Shown: positions 35,822 to 39,824 of the stretch, piece after piece
Layout: each line of letters begins with the position of its first letter
How positions within the stretch are numbered: position 1 is the first letter of the stretch
Sequence record: PQ356294.1
Direction: 5' to 3' (one strand)
From: Escherichia phage Ec_YwIITB1
DNA length: 64,000 nucleotides
Made by a program: the position numbers and the translations under genes
The notes under the pieces: model-generated
The model's database searches: none
The model's input: the letters and a program-made list of their open reading frames with translations, nothing else
What the model was told of the DNA's origin: nothing

Positions 35822-36352
<531 letters not shown>

Positions 36353-36808
36353 TTAAAAGAGGCTGTTCATTATTCGGTAAAGTGAAGGGCCCATCACATA
36401 TTGCCACTGAGTACGAGGAATAAGAGCAAAAGCATCCATCTCTGGAATCATAACGCCATCTTTATTTTCAAAATAAGACTCACAACAGCAATTTCTAAAC
36501 ATCTCATGCTCTACTGGAATCGTATAGTAAAATAACTGTAAGTCTTTATTACTAGAATATTTAAATACACCTAAGTCTTCTAGAAGGTCTGGATTATAAT
36601 TGCTAAAGCCAGTCTCTTCTAAGCATTCTCTTCGTGCTGCATCTAGCGCGCTTAAATCAGAATTTTCTACACGCCCCTTTGGAATATCCCAGCGATGTGC
36701 CATCATTCCATGCTTACGAGAACCAGTAACTCGTCCCATAAATAAATCTTTATCTTCTGTCATAAAGATAATACCAGCTGATAGTGTTTTCATTTTAATT
36801 TCCTGCAT
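36353..36808 (-). CDS. nudE: Nudix hydrolase
   Basis: Nudix box GRVENSDLSALDAARRECLEETG; start may be the second ATG at 36791-36793, which overlaps the upstream stop. Confidence 0.8.
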   Translation of the reverse strand: MQEIKMKTLSAGIIFMTEDKDLFMGRVTGSRKHGMMAHRWDIPKGRVENSDLSALDAARRECLEETGFSNYNPDLLEDLGVFKYSSNKDLQLFYYTIPVEHEMFRNCCCESYFENKDGVMIPEMDAFALIPRTQWQYVMGPSLYRIMNSLF

Positions 36809-37278
36809 TCAGTGATAAAATTATTTAAATTTTGAGCATATTTCTTTTCATCAAAAATCTTTTGTTGCCTGCGCATCCGCCATGGCATTTCAATGAACAT
36901 GTACCATATTCCTGATAATATTGATGCTGTAAAAATATTAACAAGTATGATTAAAAGAATCCAATCTTCCGTTCTGCCTACTGGACTTTCTATAAAAAAG
37001 CAAAATACAAATGATGACACAGGAAAACTAATGATATACCACAGAATCATAATCTTATCTGTGAACCATTCAGCATTCGTTAACTTAGCACGGCCATTAT
37101 GAATACACACGAATTTATCATCTGTTACAGTAGATGGCTTAACTGCTTGATATCCCATTCTAAACTCCCTAATTAATCGTTTCTTTGTATCTTCAGAACA
37201 GCCGCTCCAGTCAACTCTATCAACTGAAATGCCATCGTCCCCATCATCTAAATCATACCAGTGAGTTTTTAAAATCAT
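36790..37278 (-). CDS. membrane protein (tail ...ECRKLK)
   Basis: 162 aa; two TM helices; translationally coupled. Confidence 0.6.
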   Translation of the reverse strand: MILKTHWYDLDDGDDGISVDRVDWSGCSEDTKKRLIREFRMGYQAVKPSTVTDDKFVCIHNGRAKLTNAEWFTDKIMILWYIISFPVSSFVFCFFIESPVGRTEDWILLIILVNIFTASILSGIWYMFIEMPWRMRRQQKIFDEKKYAQNLNNFITECRKLK

Positions 37279-37592
37279 TTAATTTTCCTACAATCACTCA
37301 CAAACTCTTCCATTGATTCTTTTTCAATATAAGACATATAGCTATTATATTCCTTTAATTGTATTTTGTAATCCTTTTTTCTTTGCCAATTTATTTTAAA
37401 ATTATCATAATGAAAATATAACATGGTACCAAAGAATGAAAATAATGAAATCGCTATAGTATAATGAAGTTCACTCCAAACTTCTATTATATCTACTATA
37501 CCGCTGACGTTACTGCGGATGTTTAAAATAAAACAGTCAATTAACAATCCAATAAAAACTACCCGCAAGAGCTGCAGCCAATGCCACAGCAA
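37275..37592 (-). CDS. membrane protein (tail ...DCRKIK)
   Basis: 105 aa; two N-terminal TM helices; stop overlaps the next ATG. Confidence 0.6.
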   Translation of the reverse strand: MLWHWLQLLRVVFIGLLIDCFILNIRSNVSGIVDIIEVWSELHYTIAISLFSFFGTMLYFHYDNFKINWQRKKDYKIQLKEYNSYMSYIEKESMEEFVSDCRKIK

Positions 37593-37631
37593 AAATTGAA
37601 AATGACTCAGAAAAAGAATATTTGACTTTAT

Positions 37632-38045
37632 TTAGTTTTGGCTTTTGCATCGTGATTCCTTAACAAATTTCATAATTTCATCAAATTCATACATATCTAG
37701 CTTAAGCTGGTGTTCCTTTTTAATCTTTTTACACTGAGCTTTCCAATCACGTACGCGTTTACGATAATGTCTTCCTTGATACCAGTATCCTACCCAATTT
37801 ACAGGTACTAATAAAAGCGGAACTACCAATGGAAGAATTAGTGTTGCTCCAAATATTACACCAGATTCAATATCAGTCATAACGTCTATAACCATTCCAG
37901 CAATCACCAAAATCACAAATGATACAGCTACCACAGGACCTATTAACACATCAGTAGAAATTAGCTGACGCTTTGGTTCATACTTCACGGGTTTACTTGG
38001 AAGGTATAGTGATGGCTTTGACATATTCTCTACATTCCTTAACAA
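37632..38045 (-). CDS. membrane protein
   Basis: 137 aa; TM hairpin; basic C-terminal helix. Confidence 0.6.
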   Translation of the reverse strand: MLRNVENMSKPSLYLPSKPVKYEPKRQLISTDVLIGPVVAVSFVILVIAGMVIDVMTDIESGVIFGATLILPLVVPLLLVPVNWVGYWYQGRHYRKRVRDWKAQCKKIKKEHQLKLDMYEFDEIMKFVKESRCKSQN

Positions 38046-38601
38046 ATTTTTCTAATAATAAATCGCTTTCAAAATTGGGATTTTCTACGAATTTATCAAA
38101 AAGATCATCAACAATAGTTAAGATATTCTTTTTACTAAGAATACGCTTATTTTCATATTTTGTTTCAGAGTCAACTATAAGAGTAAAGAAATATTTCTTT
38201 CCCTGAAATTTTACCGTAGTATCAATATAAAATAAATTTGATTTTTGTAAATTACGTTTAAACCATGCATCACTTAAACTATAAACGCCAAGATAATCAT
38301 AATCGTCGTTTAAATAACAAACCGTCCATTCAGGAGAAATGAAATCAGTAAATTCAACATCAAAATCACATGTCAATGAATGAATTGATTCAATACTGTT
38401 AATGAGTATTCCAGGACGTATTAAAGACTTTTTACCTCTATAAAATCTTCCAGAAAGACTTTCATCAGTTTCATATGAAGACCCCCTATAGTAATTACGT
38501 CCTTCTGCCATACGTTTAAGAGCATTTAGTAATTGGTCTGGAACATCAACCTGTCTTTGGAACTCTTCAAACATTGAATTGAAATCACTTTGCATTTTCA
38601 T
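37993..38601 (-). CDS. hypothetical protein
   Basis: 202 aa ORF. Confidence 0.6.
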   Translation of the reverse strand: MKMQSDFNSMFEEFQRQVDVPDQLLNALKRMAEGRNYYRGSSYETDESLSGRFYRGKKSLIRPGILINSIESIHSLTCDFDVEFTDFISPEWTVCYLNDDYDYLGVYSLSDAWFKRNLQKSNLFYIDTTVKFQGKKYFFTLIVDSETKYENKRILSKKNILTIVDDLFDKFVENPNFESDLLLEKFVKECREYVKAITIPSK

Positions 38602-38619
38602 TCCTATTTACTCCAAGTA

Positions 38620-38639
38620 TAAGGGGCCGAAGCCCCTTA
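38620..38639 (-). other. UUCG-tetraloop hairpin
   Basis: taaggggc-cgaa-gcccctta in the intergenic region. Confidence 0.45.
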
Positions 38640-38642
38640 TCA

Positions 38643-39236
38643 TTATTTCAGAGAATTAATGTATTCCTGAACATCGGCAGAGGTAGTTTCAACCCCGGAA
38701 ATATTACCATTAAAGGTTTCAACTCGAGCAAGAGTATCTTCAATATCAACCTTAGTCAGCGCTGCAATTTCAACTACATCATCGGCAGTACTAATTCCAA
38801 GGGCATTTGCCGCACGAGTTTCACGGATATATTCCAATTTAACTGCAAGCTCTTGACGAGCATCATCTAACTCAACTACTTTCTTGGCGATTTCAATTCG
38901 CATTTCAGCATAACCGTCAGCTTTAGTAGTCAACTGCTCAGCTGTTCGACGATATAGCAAGCCGAGTTTAGCGTGCATTGTTACATCTTGACCTTCGGAA
39001 AGAAGTTTACGAATTTCACGCTCTTTTGATTCAGCCTGTCGATTCTTTTCGACAATAAGTTCACGAATACGTTTTTCTTCATTAATAGATTTAACAGAAG
39101 CAGTTTTTAGATCTTTAATTTTATCAAGCAGTTTTGCCGCCGCAGCAGTATACTGTTCTTCAACAGATAGATTTTTAGCCATAGCAGAACCAAGTTTAGT
39201 GCGAATAAACTCAACAATTTTCTTTAGTGTGTTCAT
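38643..39236 (-). CDS. coiled-coil protein (weak PspA/IM30-like resemblance)
   Basis: 197 aa, heptad-rich charged helices; family assignment speculative. Confidence 0.55.
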
Positions 39237-39278
39237 AGTATTTCCTTAGGTTGATTAAAAATAAAATCTGTGGAAGAA

Positions 39279-39824
39279 TTATATCATACTATTTAAGAGA
39301 TGTAAACTATTTTTAATTTTACAAATTCGTTCAGCTTCTTCAACGGCGGCGGCGATAATGCTTTTAGCTATAGGAGTACTAATACTAGTAGCTTTTACAC
39401 TTAACACGATTTCTTTATCTTTACTAGGCCAACCCCATGATTTTTCACCATGAGTGCCTTTAATTACAGCAGACACCTCAAGTGAGCATCCACTGTCACA
39501 TGTTTTTACATTAACAACCCAAGGGTCACTTTTCTCAACCGATTTCTCAGCCGGTTTATCCCAGTAAATATTAAGAATACGTGGGACATCAAATTTAGCA
39601 GGGCAAATCTTAACTGTAAGACCTTCGCTTTCTAGCCAATTAATAAGAGGGCGTTCATACATGCGGCGATGTGGGCTTTGGACTCGACAAGCCTTGTGCC
39701 CATTGCTTGCGGCTTCACTAAGCTGTTCTAATACCTGTTTTTGCATTATTGATAAGATATCATCAAAAGATTTTTCGGAAGTTTCATTCAGTTCGGTATA
39801 AAGAGACATAGCGGTTTTCCTCAA
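39279..39824 (-). CDS. hypothetical protein
   Basis: 181 aa ORF. Confidence 0.6.
   Translation of the reverse strand: MRKTAMSLYTELNETSEKSFDDILSIMQKQVLEQLSEAASNGHKACRVQSPHRRMYERPLINWLESEGLTVKICPAKFDVPRILNIYWDKPAEKSVEKSDPWVVNVKTCDSGCSLEVSAVIKGTHGEKSWGWPSKDKEIVLSVKATSISTPIAKSIIAAAVEEAERICKIKNSLHLLNSMI

Follow-up and report, generated by a model that had tools for sequence, protein, structure and literature searches.

Four consecutive minus-strand genes of a T4-like Escherichia phage, e.5, e.4, e.3 and e.2, encode proteins that end in one related C-terminal motif, and the codons of each tail contain the predicted Shine-Dalgarno (SD) site of the following gene. We consider it probable that e.4, e.3 and, in its C-terminal half, e.2 are diverged paralogous membrane proteins of a T4-type early unit, that the tail they share with e.5 is kept by selection, and that its SD serves the next cistron. 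The related tails had been pointed out in an earlier note on this DNA and were borne out: e.5 ends in …KFVKECREYVKAITIPSK, e.4 in …KFVKESRCKSQN, e.3 in …EFVSDCRKIK and e.2 in …NFITECRKLK. We found no mention of a shared C-terminal motif in T4 annotations or in the literature on these genes.

An early gene block of T4-like phages

The DNA analysed, hereafter the window, is a stretch of 64,000 nucleotides from phage Ec_YwIITB1 (PQ356294.1), a Tequatrovirus with 98.4% DNA identity to phage UGKSEcP2. On its minus strand e.5, e.4, e.3 and e.2, followed by nudE, are syntenic with e.5-nudE of T4. Order, strand, overlaps and tails are all shared with the T4 genes (T4p128-T4p125, upstream of nudE and e), and the proteins are 83-95% identical to their T4 counterparts. 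The e.5-e.4-e.3-e.2-nudE segment is a known early gene block of T4-like phage, and the locus represents no new kind of system. The genes and flanking elements are as follows.

39278..39306, minus strand: sigma-70-like promoter upstream of e.6, TTTACA-17-TATAAT, 11/12 with TG, predicted by consensus scan only
38619..38640, minus strand: stable hairpin GGGGCUUCGGCCCC in the e.6/e.5 interval, with UUCG as its loop; centroid energy -15.6 kcal/mol, z -2.1
37993..38601, minus strand: e.5, 202 aa, soluble protein; open reading frame, phrog_2607 (E 1.4e-108), syntenic with T4 e.5
37632..38024, minus strand: e.4, 130 aa, predicted N-in/C-in two-TM inner-membrane protein; phrog_2604 (E 5.5e-70)
37275..37650, minus strand: e.3, 124 aa when repaired; the repaired protein matches phrog_2330 (E 1.1e-60)
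36790..37278, minus strand: e.2, 162 aa, with a 75-aa N-terminal domain and a predicted two-TM hairpin that leads through a basic helix into the tail; phrog_2203 (E 1.9e-76)
36353..36793, minus strand: nudE (Nudix hydrolase), final gene of the overlapping chain; open reading frame and annotation in T4 and relatives

The GGGGCUUCGGCCCC hairpin delimits the compact run of genes on its upstream side, and the predicted promoter likely acts as the early promoter for e.6 through nudE. Each of e.5, e.4, e.3 and e.2 matched a PHROG family of its own (E 1e-60 to 1e-108), the matches covering residues 1-202 of e.5, 1-130 of e.4 and 1-160 of e.2. Precomputed Pfam tags were PF26873 for e.4, on 98 of 98 homologue clusters, and PF26896 for e.2. 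When we scanned e.5, e.4, e.3, e.2 and e.6 ourselves against Pfam, NCBIfam and PADLOC, nothing rose above threshold; these scans lend no support to the labels 'sulfurtransferase', 'host specificity protein' and 'DNA primase' that some e.3 and e.4 homologues carry. When e.6 and e.5 were searched as profiles against PDB sequences, nothing matched with E below 0.25, so that a PspA-like identity of e.6 was left unsupported. A look-up for the exact e.2 product of the window had no match.

Two genes of the block differ from T4. The e.2 gene is full length in the window, whereas in T4 a -1/+1 indel pair shortens its product to 102 aa. Conversely, e.3, taken in the earlier note as one of the consecutive genes, proved on DNA alignment with three relatives to carry a +1 T frameshift that the T4 gene lacks. 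The extra T falls in the T-run at 37554-37558 and splits the gene into a 37-aa and a 105-aa open reading frame; in UGKSEcP2, T4 and two further relatives the run at this position is four pyrimidines long. The five-T allele occurred in 0 of 473 phage records, the best four of which matched 180 of 181 positions, whereas IMG/VR scans for the T-run matched neither the five-T nor the four-T allele and so were uninformative. Either the additional base arose as a sequencing error, or it makes e.3 a pseudogene private to this phage.

Shared tails and predicted Shine-Dalgarno sites

The tail motifs, the direct repeat and the predicted SD sites were placed as follows.

38029-38046, minus strand: tail motif FVKECR of e.5
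37650-37667, minus strand: tail motif FVKESR of e.4
37287-37304, minus strand: tail motif FVSDCR of e.3
36802-36819, minus strand: tail motif FITECR of e.2
38034-38049 (e.5 tail) and 37655..37670 (e.4 tail), minus strand: exact 16-nt direct repeat AAATTTGTTAAGGAAT, from repeat search and junction alignment
38036..38040, minus strand: SD-like AAGGA for e.4, 11 nt upstream of the ATG at 38024 and within Lys-Glu codons of the e.5 tail
37657-37661, minus strand: predicted SD AAGGA for e.3, within the AAATTTGTTAAGGAAT copy in the e.4 tail
37286-37289, minus strand: predicted SD AGGA for e.2, in Arg-Lys codons of the e.3 tail, 7 nt upstream of the ATG
36801-36804, minus strand: predicted SD AGGA for nudE, in Arg-Lys codons of the e.2 tail, 7 nt upstream of the ATG

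Across the open reading frames of the window, about 19,100 aa in total, the pattern F[VIL]x[ED]xR turned up five times, and four of the five occurrences were the e.5-e.2 tails, 3-11 residues from the C-terminus. The pattern [FW][VIL]xxCR had only three matches among the six-frame open reading frames of the window plus the 75 kb of T4 lying outside it, all three within the e.5-e.2 cluster. These counts reject chance similarity of the tails and show the motif to be specific to this locus. When IMG/VR was scanned for a FIxEC[R/S]K-stop/ATG junction, 25 matches were obtained, 12 of them T-even e.2 or e.3 and the others short chance open reading frames.

The motif is kept in Mosigvirus, Dhakavirus, Gaprivervirus, a Klebsiella T4-like phage and phage M719, with the consensus hydrophobic-x-x-[F/W]-[I/V]-x-[E/D]-C-R-[K/E]. 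It is present in e.5, e.4 and e.3 of RB69 and of M719, in e.2 of JS10, VR7 and E33, and in genes 43, 44, 45 and 49 of K65; in the Klebsiella phage the same motif ends another soluble protein. The tail was retained in 87 of 88, 35 of 36 and 42 of 42 full-length clusters, and 5 of the 10 columns invariant in e.5 across genera sit in it. The motif is not strict: e.4 has Ser, Ile or Val in place of Cys, and the tail of K65 gene 46 is degenerate (WIKEMK).

The helical hydrophobic moment was 0.49-0.70 in 9 of 10 tails, as against about 0.3 for shuffles, and AF2 puts the tails in helices with low confidence. For e.2 (22-sequence alignment, pLDDT 51) it gave, again at low confidence, a single helix of residues 103-161 running into the tail; the single-sequence model of e.5 reached a pLDDT of 38. 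Both models are poor and thus give no structural support for a partner or complex. Under the reading we favour, the motif, predicted to be helical and placed in the cytoplasm by the topology that we infer below, would be kept through selection on the protein. The tail would most likely pack against a common partner or against other tails, and the operon products would then act together as one membrane-associated set.

A bolder version of this idea makes the FIxECRK tail a portable cytoplasmic docking helix, carried by products of a single early operon that are otherwise unrelated, namely the soluble e.5, the two-TM e.4, e.3 and e.2 and the soluble protein of the Klebsiella phage, and gathering them on one partner or in one complex at the membrane, with the junction and its ribosome-binding site forming a 'plug-in' module. 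If true, motif and next ribosome-binding site would let new cassettes join operon and complex together. We think this unlikely. The likeness of the soluble e.5 to e.4, e.3 and e.2 is confined to the tail.

It is distinctly unlikely, in our judgement, that the tails are alike only because each encodes a translation-initiation region, with an A/U-rich leader and a purine-rich SD, the peptide likeness being a by-product. All four predicted SDs do fall inside the upstream coding sequence, within the tails, so that every tail in the window sits exactly on the ribosome-binding site of the next gene, and e.5 and e.4 have the 16-nt stretch in common. The Lys/Glu-Glu codons (AAG GAA, GAG GAA), moreover, hardly vary in nucleotide sequence from genus to genus, so that selection on the RNA contributes as well. 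Across genera, however, Arg alternates between AGR and CGN codons (AGA, AGG, CGA, CGT, CGC), Cys between TGT and TGC, Phe is TTT or TTC or gives way to Trp, and Ile/Val is written with five codons. This synonymous and conservative variation argues for a mainly protein-level motif. Nor do TTT, RTT and TGY represent SD elements; the SD is drawn from different codon pairs in different tails, most genes of the window possess an SD yet lack the tail peptide, and K65 gene 49 bears the motif without an overlapping ribosome-binding site, its next gene starting 29 nt downstream.

The earlier note had assigned the ribosome-binding site of each next gene to the Arg-Lys codons, AGGAAA. This assignment holds at e.3/e.2 and e.2/nudE and fails at e.5/e.4 and e.4/e.3, where the predicted site is AAGGA in Lys-Glu codons; in other genera Arg is CGT or CGC, unlike the AGG of AGGAAA. 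We propose that both the Lys/Glu-Glu and the Arg-Lys codons (AAG GAA, GAG GAA, AGG AAA) would double as the SD of the next cistron, the choice of codon pair being set by the distance of the stop/ATG from the motif.

The genes overlap by 32 nt at e.5/e.4, 19 nt at e.4/e.3 and 4 nt at both e.3/e.2 and e.2/nudE, the last two being the ATGA stop/start junctions that had been described. Of 91 same-strand neighbour pairs in the window, 34 overlap and 14 do so as ATGA. Thus ATGA overlaps and an SD in the upstream gene are ordinary in this genome, and such packing is standard T4 biology. The term 'translationally coupled', which the earlier note applied to the chain, draws on junction geometry. Stop/start overlap with an SD inside the upstream reading frame is indeed there; a structure sequestering the ribosome-binding site is not, the junction RNAs folding no better than shuffles (z -0.7 to +1.3). 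The short overlaps (ATGA, 19 nt, 32 nt), usual in T4, may give some translational coupling.

With its two ATGA junctions and four internal SDs, the block resembles the coupled cistrons known from compact operons of phages and bacteria, which meet at ATGA or TAATG and have the SD in the upstream reading frame. It differs from them in the 19- and 32-nt overlaps at the other two junctions and in having no structure that masks a ribosome-binding site. The unusual feature, by comparison, is that the peptide bearing the SD forms a conserved motif in its own right and recurs in one gene after another. The tail is a clear dual-use sequence, in which protein motif and ribosome-binding site constrain each other, and such tails matter for recoding and for synthetic phage genome design.

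Predicted topology and probable descent of the membrane proteins

T4 annotation already designates e.2, e.3 and e.4 as 'predicted membrane protein', and a chain of membrane proteins had been proposed for the window. The proposal stood for e.4 and e.2, each with two strong hydrophobic segments (KD peaks 2.75/2.55 and 2.13/2.31), and with one strong and one weaker segment for e.3 (2.51 and 1.37); it did not extend to e.5, which has no hydrophobic segment. The TM hairpin with a basic helix also found support, as a predicted architecture common to e.4, e.3 and e.2: a short basic N-terminus, the hairpin, then a basic helix in the cytoplasm and finally the tail, with an extra 75-aa N-domain before the hairpin in e.2. 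Flank charges of +3/-3/+8 for e.4, and of +3/-2/+2 and -2/-1/+5 for the other two hairpin proteins, form a positive-inside pattern. On this pattern the three are predicted to be inner-membrane N-in/C-in hairpins, with the tail presumably cytoplasmic.

That all three are paralogous, as the earlier note suggested, was sustained for e.4 and e.3, which hhalign aligned over 117 columns with 93% probability and E 3e-7; their score of 44.8 was reached by 0 of 150 block-shuffled controls (17.9±3.8). The e.3 match to e.2, in contrast, was confined to the final 21 aa. Shallow within-genus profiles gave local hhalign matches only, and these improved after other genera were added. Among divergent members, PHROG cross-hits between the families, weak at E 0.005-0.008, spanned the two-TM-plus-tail region, and a natural e.4/e.2 chimera (P0098) is joined in register inside TM1. 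An exhaustive e.3 HMM search of 1.84 billion representatives yielded seven matches, all of them e.3 orthologues or fragments, with no e.4 or e.2. We conclude from these comparisons that e.4 and e.3 are detectably diverged paralogues, to which the C-terminal half of e.2 appears weakly linked. In our preferred reading, e.4, e.3 and the C-terminal half of e.2 would be one type of small inner-membrane protein that diverged, probably after tandem duplication.

The e.4/e.3 signal comes mostly from the N-terminus and the tail. Trimming the first eight residues and the tails lowered the score to 24.1, roughly 1.6 sd above shuffles, so the TM cores may be unrelated and only junction modules shared. The junctions (tail, SD, start and first codons) might then be short homology 'linkers' for recombining small-gene cassettes, a coding analogue of PeSL, the mobile intergenic early-promoter and stem-loop units of T4-type hyperplastic regions (PMC2839356, PMC4122927). 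Like PeSL, they are short conserved sequences that lie at gene boundaries, carry expression signals and belong to a variable region where the genes are small and accessory. Such an origin would fit the concentration of e.4/e.3 homology at both ends, the exact 16-nt repeat and similar first codons ATGnnAAAGCCAnnACTA of the e.5/e.4 and e.4/e.3 junctions, the existence of chimeras and fusions, and the changing set of genes between tails (e.4-e.3-e.2 in T4, e.4-e.3 in RB69, e.2 only in JS10, 44-45-46 in K65). We nevertheless hold it to be quite improbable. The one chimera examined, P0098, is joined away from the tail; the tails of any one genome show numerous synonymous differences and so have not been homogenised recently; and indels that respect gene boundaries are expected anyway under selection for intact genes. 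Unlike PeSL, the e.5-e.2 junction elements are intragenic and translated, and have an SD in place of a promoter or terminator: no promoter or hairpin was found at the e.5-nudE junctions, the only hairpin being that between e.6 and e.5.

Expression and possible function

T4 Imm and Sp are superinfection exclusion proteins, small, made early and acting at the cell envelope. That e.2-e.4 mediate such exclusion or envelope remodelling, as the earlier note ventured, would suit their early expression, predicted inner-membrane location and resemblance to Imm and Sp in being small early envelope proteins, but is very improbable: searches of Pfam, NCBIfam, PADLOC and PHROGs linked them neither to Imm or Sp nor to any other family with a name, the conserved parts appear to be cytoplasmic rather than periplasmic, and T4 knock-downs are labelled 'Not Fit'. 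The loci of the exclusion genes in T4 are also different ones, imm lying at 26.4 kb and sp at 19.8 kb.

About half of the T4 genes have no assigned function. The e.2-e.6 block is conserved in several T-even genera and expressed early, and a selected C-terminal motif on four consecutive products offers a concrete, testable handle on binding partners. Most likely, e.5-e.2 are conditionally useful accessory genes at the inner membrane. Knock-down of these genes in T4 had no fitness effect in the laboratory host, although the screen failed to detect the essential gene e as well. Neither the CRISPRi-ART paper nor the HIDEN-SEQ paper refers to them in its main text. According to the supplements of PMC9697503, early RNAs are made from these genes in T4, and the proteins accumulate in different classes: e.4 and e.5 early, e.2 and nudE middle, e.3 late. 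These differing classes argue against tight stoichiometric coupling.

As a separate observation, the e.5-e.2 genes are often broken in nature.

Gene order and junctions

The 3-kb region shares 98.4% identity with Escherichia phage UGKSEcP2 and matched 645 phage records, nearly all of them T4-like Escherichia and Shigella phages. The order e.6, e.5, e.4, e.3, e.2, nudE, e on a single strand follows annotated relatives and T4, and each protein matched its own PHROG family (E 1e-60 to 1e-108). These are known, annotated T4 ORFs in standard packing. Scans of the cluster's proteins against Pfam, NCBIfam and PADLOC gave no match above threshold.

Features of the region (window coordinates)
39306-39278, minus: strong sigma-70-like promoter upstream of e.6, 11/12 positions matched
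38643-39236: e.6, 197 aa
38619-38640: stable UUCG hairpin between e.6 and e.5
37993-38601, minus: e.5, 202 aa
37632-38024, minus: e.4, 130 aa, start MSKPSL
37275-37650, minus: e.3, 124 aa when repaired
36790-37278, minus: e.2, 162 aa
36353-36793, minus: nudE, 146 aa
36343-36350 and 36330-36337, minus: two TATAAATA late-promoter motifs
35822-36316: lysozyme gene e

As the earlier note had described, four consecutive proteins end in related tails: …LEKFVKECREYVKAITIPSK in e.5, …IMKFVKESRCKSQN in e.4, …MEEFVSDCRKIK in e.3 and …LNNFITECRKLK in e.2. The same note had read the Arg-Lys codons (AGGAAA) as the ribosome-binding site (RBS) of the next gene. This holds at e.3/e.2 and e.2/nudE, the two junctions where the proposed ATGA stop/start overlap is also found, but not at e.5/e.4 and e.4/e.3, where Lys-Glu codons carry the Shine-Dalgarno (SD)-like site.

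Junctions (overlap; SD-like site and codons; distance to ATG)
e.5/e.4: 32 nt; AAGGA in Lys-Glu; 11 nt
e.4/e.3: 19 nt; AAGGA in Lys-Glu; 6 nt
e.3/e.2: 4 nt (ATGA); AGGA in Arg-Lys; 7 nt
e.2/nudE: 4 nt (ATGA); AGGA in Arg-Lys; 7 nt

Such tight packing is ordinary for the window and normal for T4 genes: among 91 same-strand neighbour pairs, 34 overlap (14 as ATGA) and another 18 lie within 15 nt. The four junction RNAs were no more structured than shuffles. Nothing forces coupling; the overlaps may give some.

The true start of e.5 is uncertain by two codons, as two in-frame ATGs (MKMQ…, 38601-38595) are preceded by GGAG at 9 nt and AGGA at 7 nt, respectively. The helix-rich e.6 protein, encoded immediately upstream of e.5 in T4, RB69, K65 and M719, is far better conserved across genera (60-88% identity, vs 19-46% for e.5). 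It matched nothing in Pfam, PDB sequences or defence models, which leaves a PspA-like identity unsupported. Upstream of e.6, at 39279-39824, the window and UGKSEcP2 carry an ORF of ~176-181 aa in place of the 111-aa e.7 of T4, a difference in cassette content of the same variable region. 'Sulfurtransferase' is the label of e.3 and e.4 homologues in many database records; 'host specificity protein' and 'putative phosphoserine phosphatase' also occur in the block, and one e.3 homologue is labelled 'DNA primase'. None of these labels is backed by a Pfam or NCBIfam model, and they look like propagated mis-annotations.

Topology and kinship of the membrane proteins

Transmembrane (TM) hairpins, claimed earlier for e.4, e.3 and e.2, are indeed predicted in all three, the second segment of e.3 being the weaker.

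KD peaks; flank charges N/loop/C
e.4: 2.75, 2.55; +3/-3/+8
e.3: 2.51, 1.37; +3/-2/+2
e.2: 2.13, 2.31; -2/-1/+5

By the positive-inside rule we infer an N-in/C-in orientation, which would place the tails in the cytoplasm; e.5 is presumably cytoplasmic.

Profiles built from the T4 group alone gave no more than local matches among e.4, e.3 and e.2. When members from RB69, K65 and M719 were added, e.4 and e.3 aligned end to end over 117 columns (probability 93%, E 3e-7, score 44.8). Reversed e.3 scored 13.7, and block-preserving column shuffles 17.9±3.8 (maximum 32.5), with 0/150 reaching 44.8. Trimming the tails and the first 8 residues lowered the score to 24.1; thus, most of the detectable e.4/e.3 signal lies in the two junction modules and not in the TM core. 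The match of e.3 to the C-terminal half of e.2 was confined to the last 21 residues (E 8e-6). Divergent members gave weak but specific PHROG cross-hits spanning the ~80-residue 2TM+tail region (E-values already corrected for 38,880 families).

PHROG cross-hits
M719 e.4 to the e.3 family (phrog_2330): E 0.0046
M719 e.3 to the e.2 family (phrog_2203): E 0.0057
K65 gene 45 to the e.2 family (phrog_2203): E 0.0079

The e.3 profile, searched exhaustively against 1.84 billion representatives, returned e.3 orthologues only, which counts against a close relationship. The earlier proposal of three paralogues fares unequally: e.4 and e.3 are likely paralogues, and the C-terminal half of e.2, somewhat less securely, probably belongs with them. 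The tail is all that e.5 and K65 gene 49 have in common with the membrane proteins.

Homology concentrated at gene ends, together with gene content that differs by genus, is suggestive of junctions acting as recombination linkers, by analogy with PeSL cassettes, the intergenic promoter and stem-loop units of T4-type hyperplastic regions (PMC2839356, PMC4122927). However, the sole chimera examined, the natural 106-aa protein P0098 of phage vB_EcoM-UFV05, carries the e.4 N-terminus and e.2 from TM1 through the tail, in register, joined inside TM1. Predicted membrane location aside, we found no evidence for or against superinfection exclusion.

The tail as a protein motif

The tail recurs across genera.

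Tails in other phages
RB69: e.5 QFIMECREYVK…; e.4 EFVKEIRCKSLNS; e.3 NFIKECRK
JS10, VR7, E33: e.2 SFIEECRK or EFIEECRK
Klebsiella phage K65: gene 43 (e.5-like) EFIKYCRERAQK; gene 44 (e.4) DFVKEVRRK; gene 45 AWIRSCRK; gene 46 SWIKEMK (degenerate); gene 49 LFIAKCRAK
M719: e.5-like RFIAECREYAKG…; e.4-like EFIKEVRNGTA; e.3-like TFIKECKS

Within T4-group full-length clusters it is kept in 87/88 for e.4, 35/36 for e.3 and 42/42 for e.2, and five of the ten columns invariant among e.5 orthologues (19-46% identity) fall in it (L181, F186, C190, R191, E192). Conserved hydrophobic residues (L/M, F/W, I/V, C) occupy positions i, i+3, i+4 and i+7; helical hydrophobic moments were 0.49-0.70 in 9/10 tails, against ~0.3 for shuffles, and low-confidence AF2 models likewise show the tails as helical (e.2 H103-161, e.5 H177-196).

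Constraint on the RNA alone could make the tails alike, and this explanation is weakened by codon usage. Across lineages Arg is encoded by AGA, AGG, CGA, CGT or CGC, Cys by TGT or TGC, Ile/Val by GTT, GTG, ATC, ATT or ATA, and Phe by TTT or TTC, or replaced by Trp. Changes that keep the peptide in this way are not expected from RNA-level selection by itself. Moreover, K65 gene 49, which encodes a soluble protein downstream of nudE, has the motif with no overlapping RBS, the next gene starting 29 nt downstream. Which purine-rich codon pair serves as SD depends on its distance from the next start: K-E or E-E (AAGGAA, GAGGAA) where the protein ends in …CRK, and R-K (AGGAAA) in T4-group e.3 and e.2, which have two more residues. 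On these sequence comparisons, the tail is best read as a conserved protein motif with an RBS superimposed.

Chance likeness is excluded by motif counts: F[VIL]x[ED]xR has 5 matches in ~19,100 residues encoded by likely genes of the window, 4 of them in these tails and lying 3-11 residues before the C-terminus, and [FW][VIL]xxCR has 3, all inside the e.5-e.2 cluster, among six-frame ORFs of at least 40 codons from the window plus 1-50 kb and 144-169 kb of T4, a set without the mainly late-gene stretch at T4 95-144 kb. An exact 16-nt repeat, AAATTTGTTAAGGAAT, is common to the tails of e.5 and e.4, and the e.5/e.4 and e.4/e.3 junctions are alike past the start codon too (ATGTCAAAGCCATCACTA vs ATGCAAAAGCCAAAACTA). 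When IMG/VR was scanned for the back-translated junction F-I-x-E-C-[R/S]-K-stop/ATG, 25 matches came back, 12 being e.2 or e.3 in T-even genomes of about 170 kb and the others short or unrelated ORFs, about the number expected by chance (a hand estimate for the pattern). The motif thus belongs to this T-even gene cluster.

On the reading we favour, this early operon segment would encode a soluble protein and diverged paralogous inner-membrane hairpin proteins, each ending in a selected cytoplasmic helix motif. Purine-rich codons of that motif would also provide the next cistron with its SD; the overlaps are usual T4 packing and may give some coupling. The motif might bind a common partner or zip the products together. 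In the limited literature searched we found no account of the shared motif, of its double role or of its conservation between genera; it adds something small and testable and is no new kind of system.

Downstream of e.3, RB69-type phages carry a further series of small soluble proteins (RB69 locus L016, 3436-4026; M719 locus L022, 3191-4213) with another C-terminal motif, G-W-V-S-S-x-x-x-C-stop (instances include GAWVSSPALC, GGWVASSHTC, QGWVSSSYSC and SWVSSSYEC), which looks like another tail-sharing paralogue array.

Gene breakage and expression

In the window e.3 is broken by five T in a T-run (37554-37558, minus strand) where UGKSEcP2, T4, vB_SsoM_113 and one IMG/VR genome have four pyrimidines, dividing it into 37-aa and 105-aa ORFs. 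The five-T allele occurred in 0/473 phage records with the segment, and the best four match at 180/181 positions, the indel being the sole difference. A homopolymer sequencing error or a private, fresh mutation is the most likely cause. The frame would be regained if ribosomes slipped by +1 on UUU_U; nothing suggests programming.

Other genomes are altered as well. The T4 reference e.2 (102 aa; NC_000866, locus L003, 2491-2961) is truncated relative to the 162-aa version of the window and most relatives, its frame broken by a -1 deletion and, ~95 nt away, a +1 insertion, and its 3' remnant retains the tail/RBS DNA ahead of nudE. Shigella phage vB_SsoM_113 has e.5 and e.4 as a single fused 975-nt ORF (locus L001, 2155-3129), the P0098 locus has e.3 deleted, and one IMG/VR genome has a truncated e.5. 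Short forms make up 8-20% of homologue clusters, and the pattern fits dispensable, conditionally useful accessory genes.

The paired TATAAATA motifs lie directly 5' of the strong AGGAGG RBS of e. This matches the classical organisation in T4, where the RBS is masked in RNA that reads through early and becomes accessible in late transcripts. In T4 omics data, e.2-e.6 and nudE are early RNAs, with proteins classed as early (e.4, e.5), middle (e.2, e.6, nudE) or late (e.3) (PMC9697503, supplementary files 4, 6). CRISPRi-ART knock-downs of nudE and e.2-e.6 were all 'Not Fit' (gene scores -0.95 to +0.32; PMC11879866 supplements); the screen is insensitive at this locus, since the essential gene e was likewise 'Not Fit' (PMC11879866). 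The same supplements list e.4 as an off-target of one e.3 guide, which we attribute to the repeated tail/RBS sequence.
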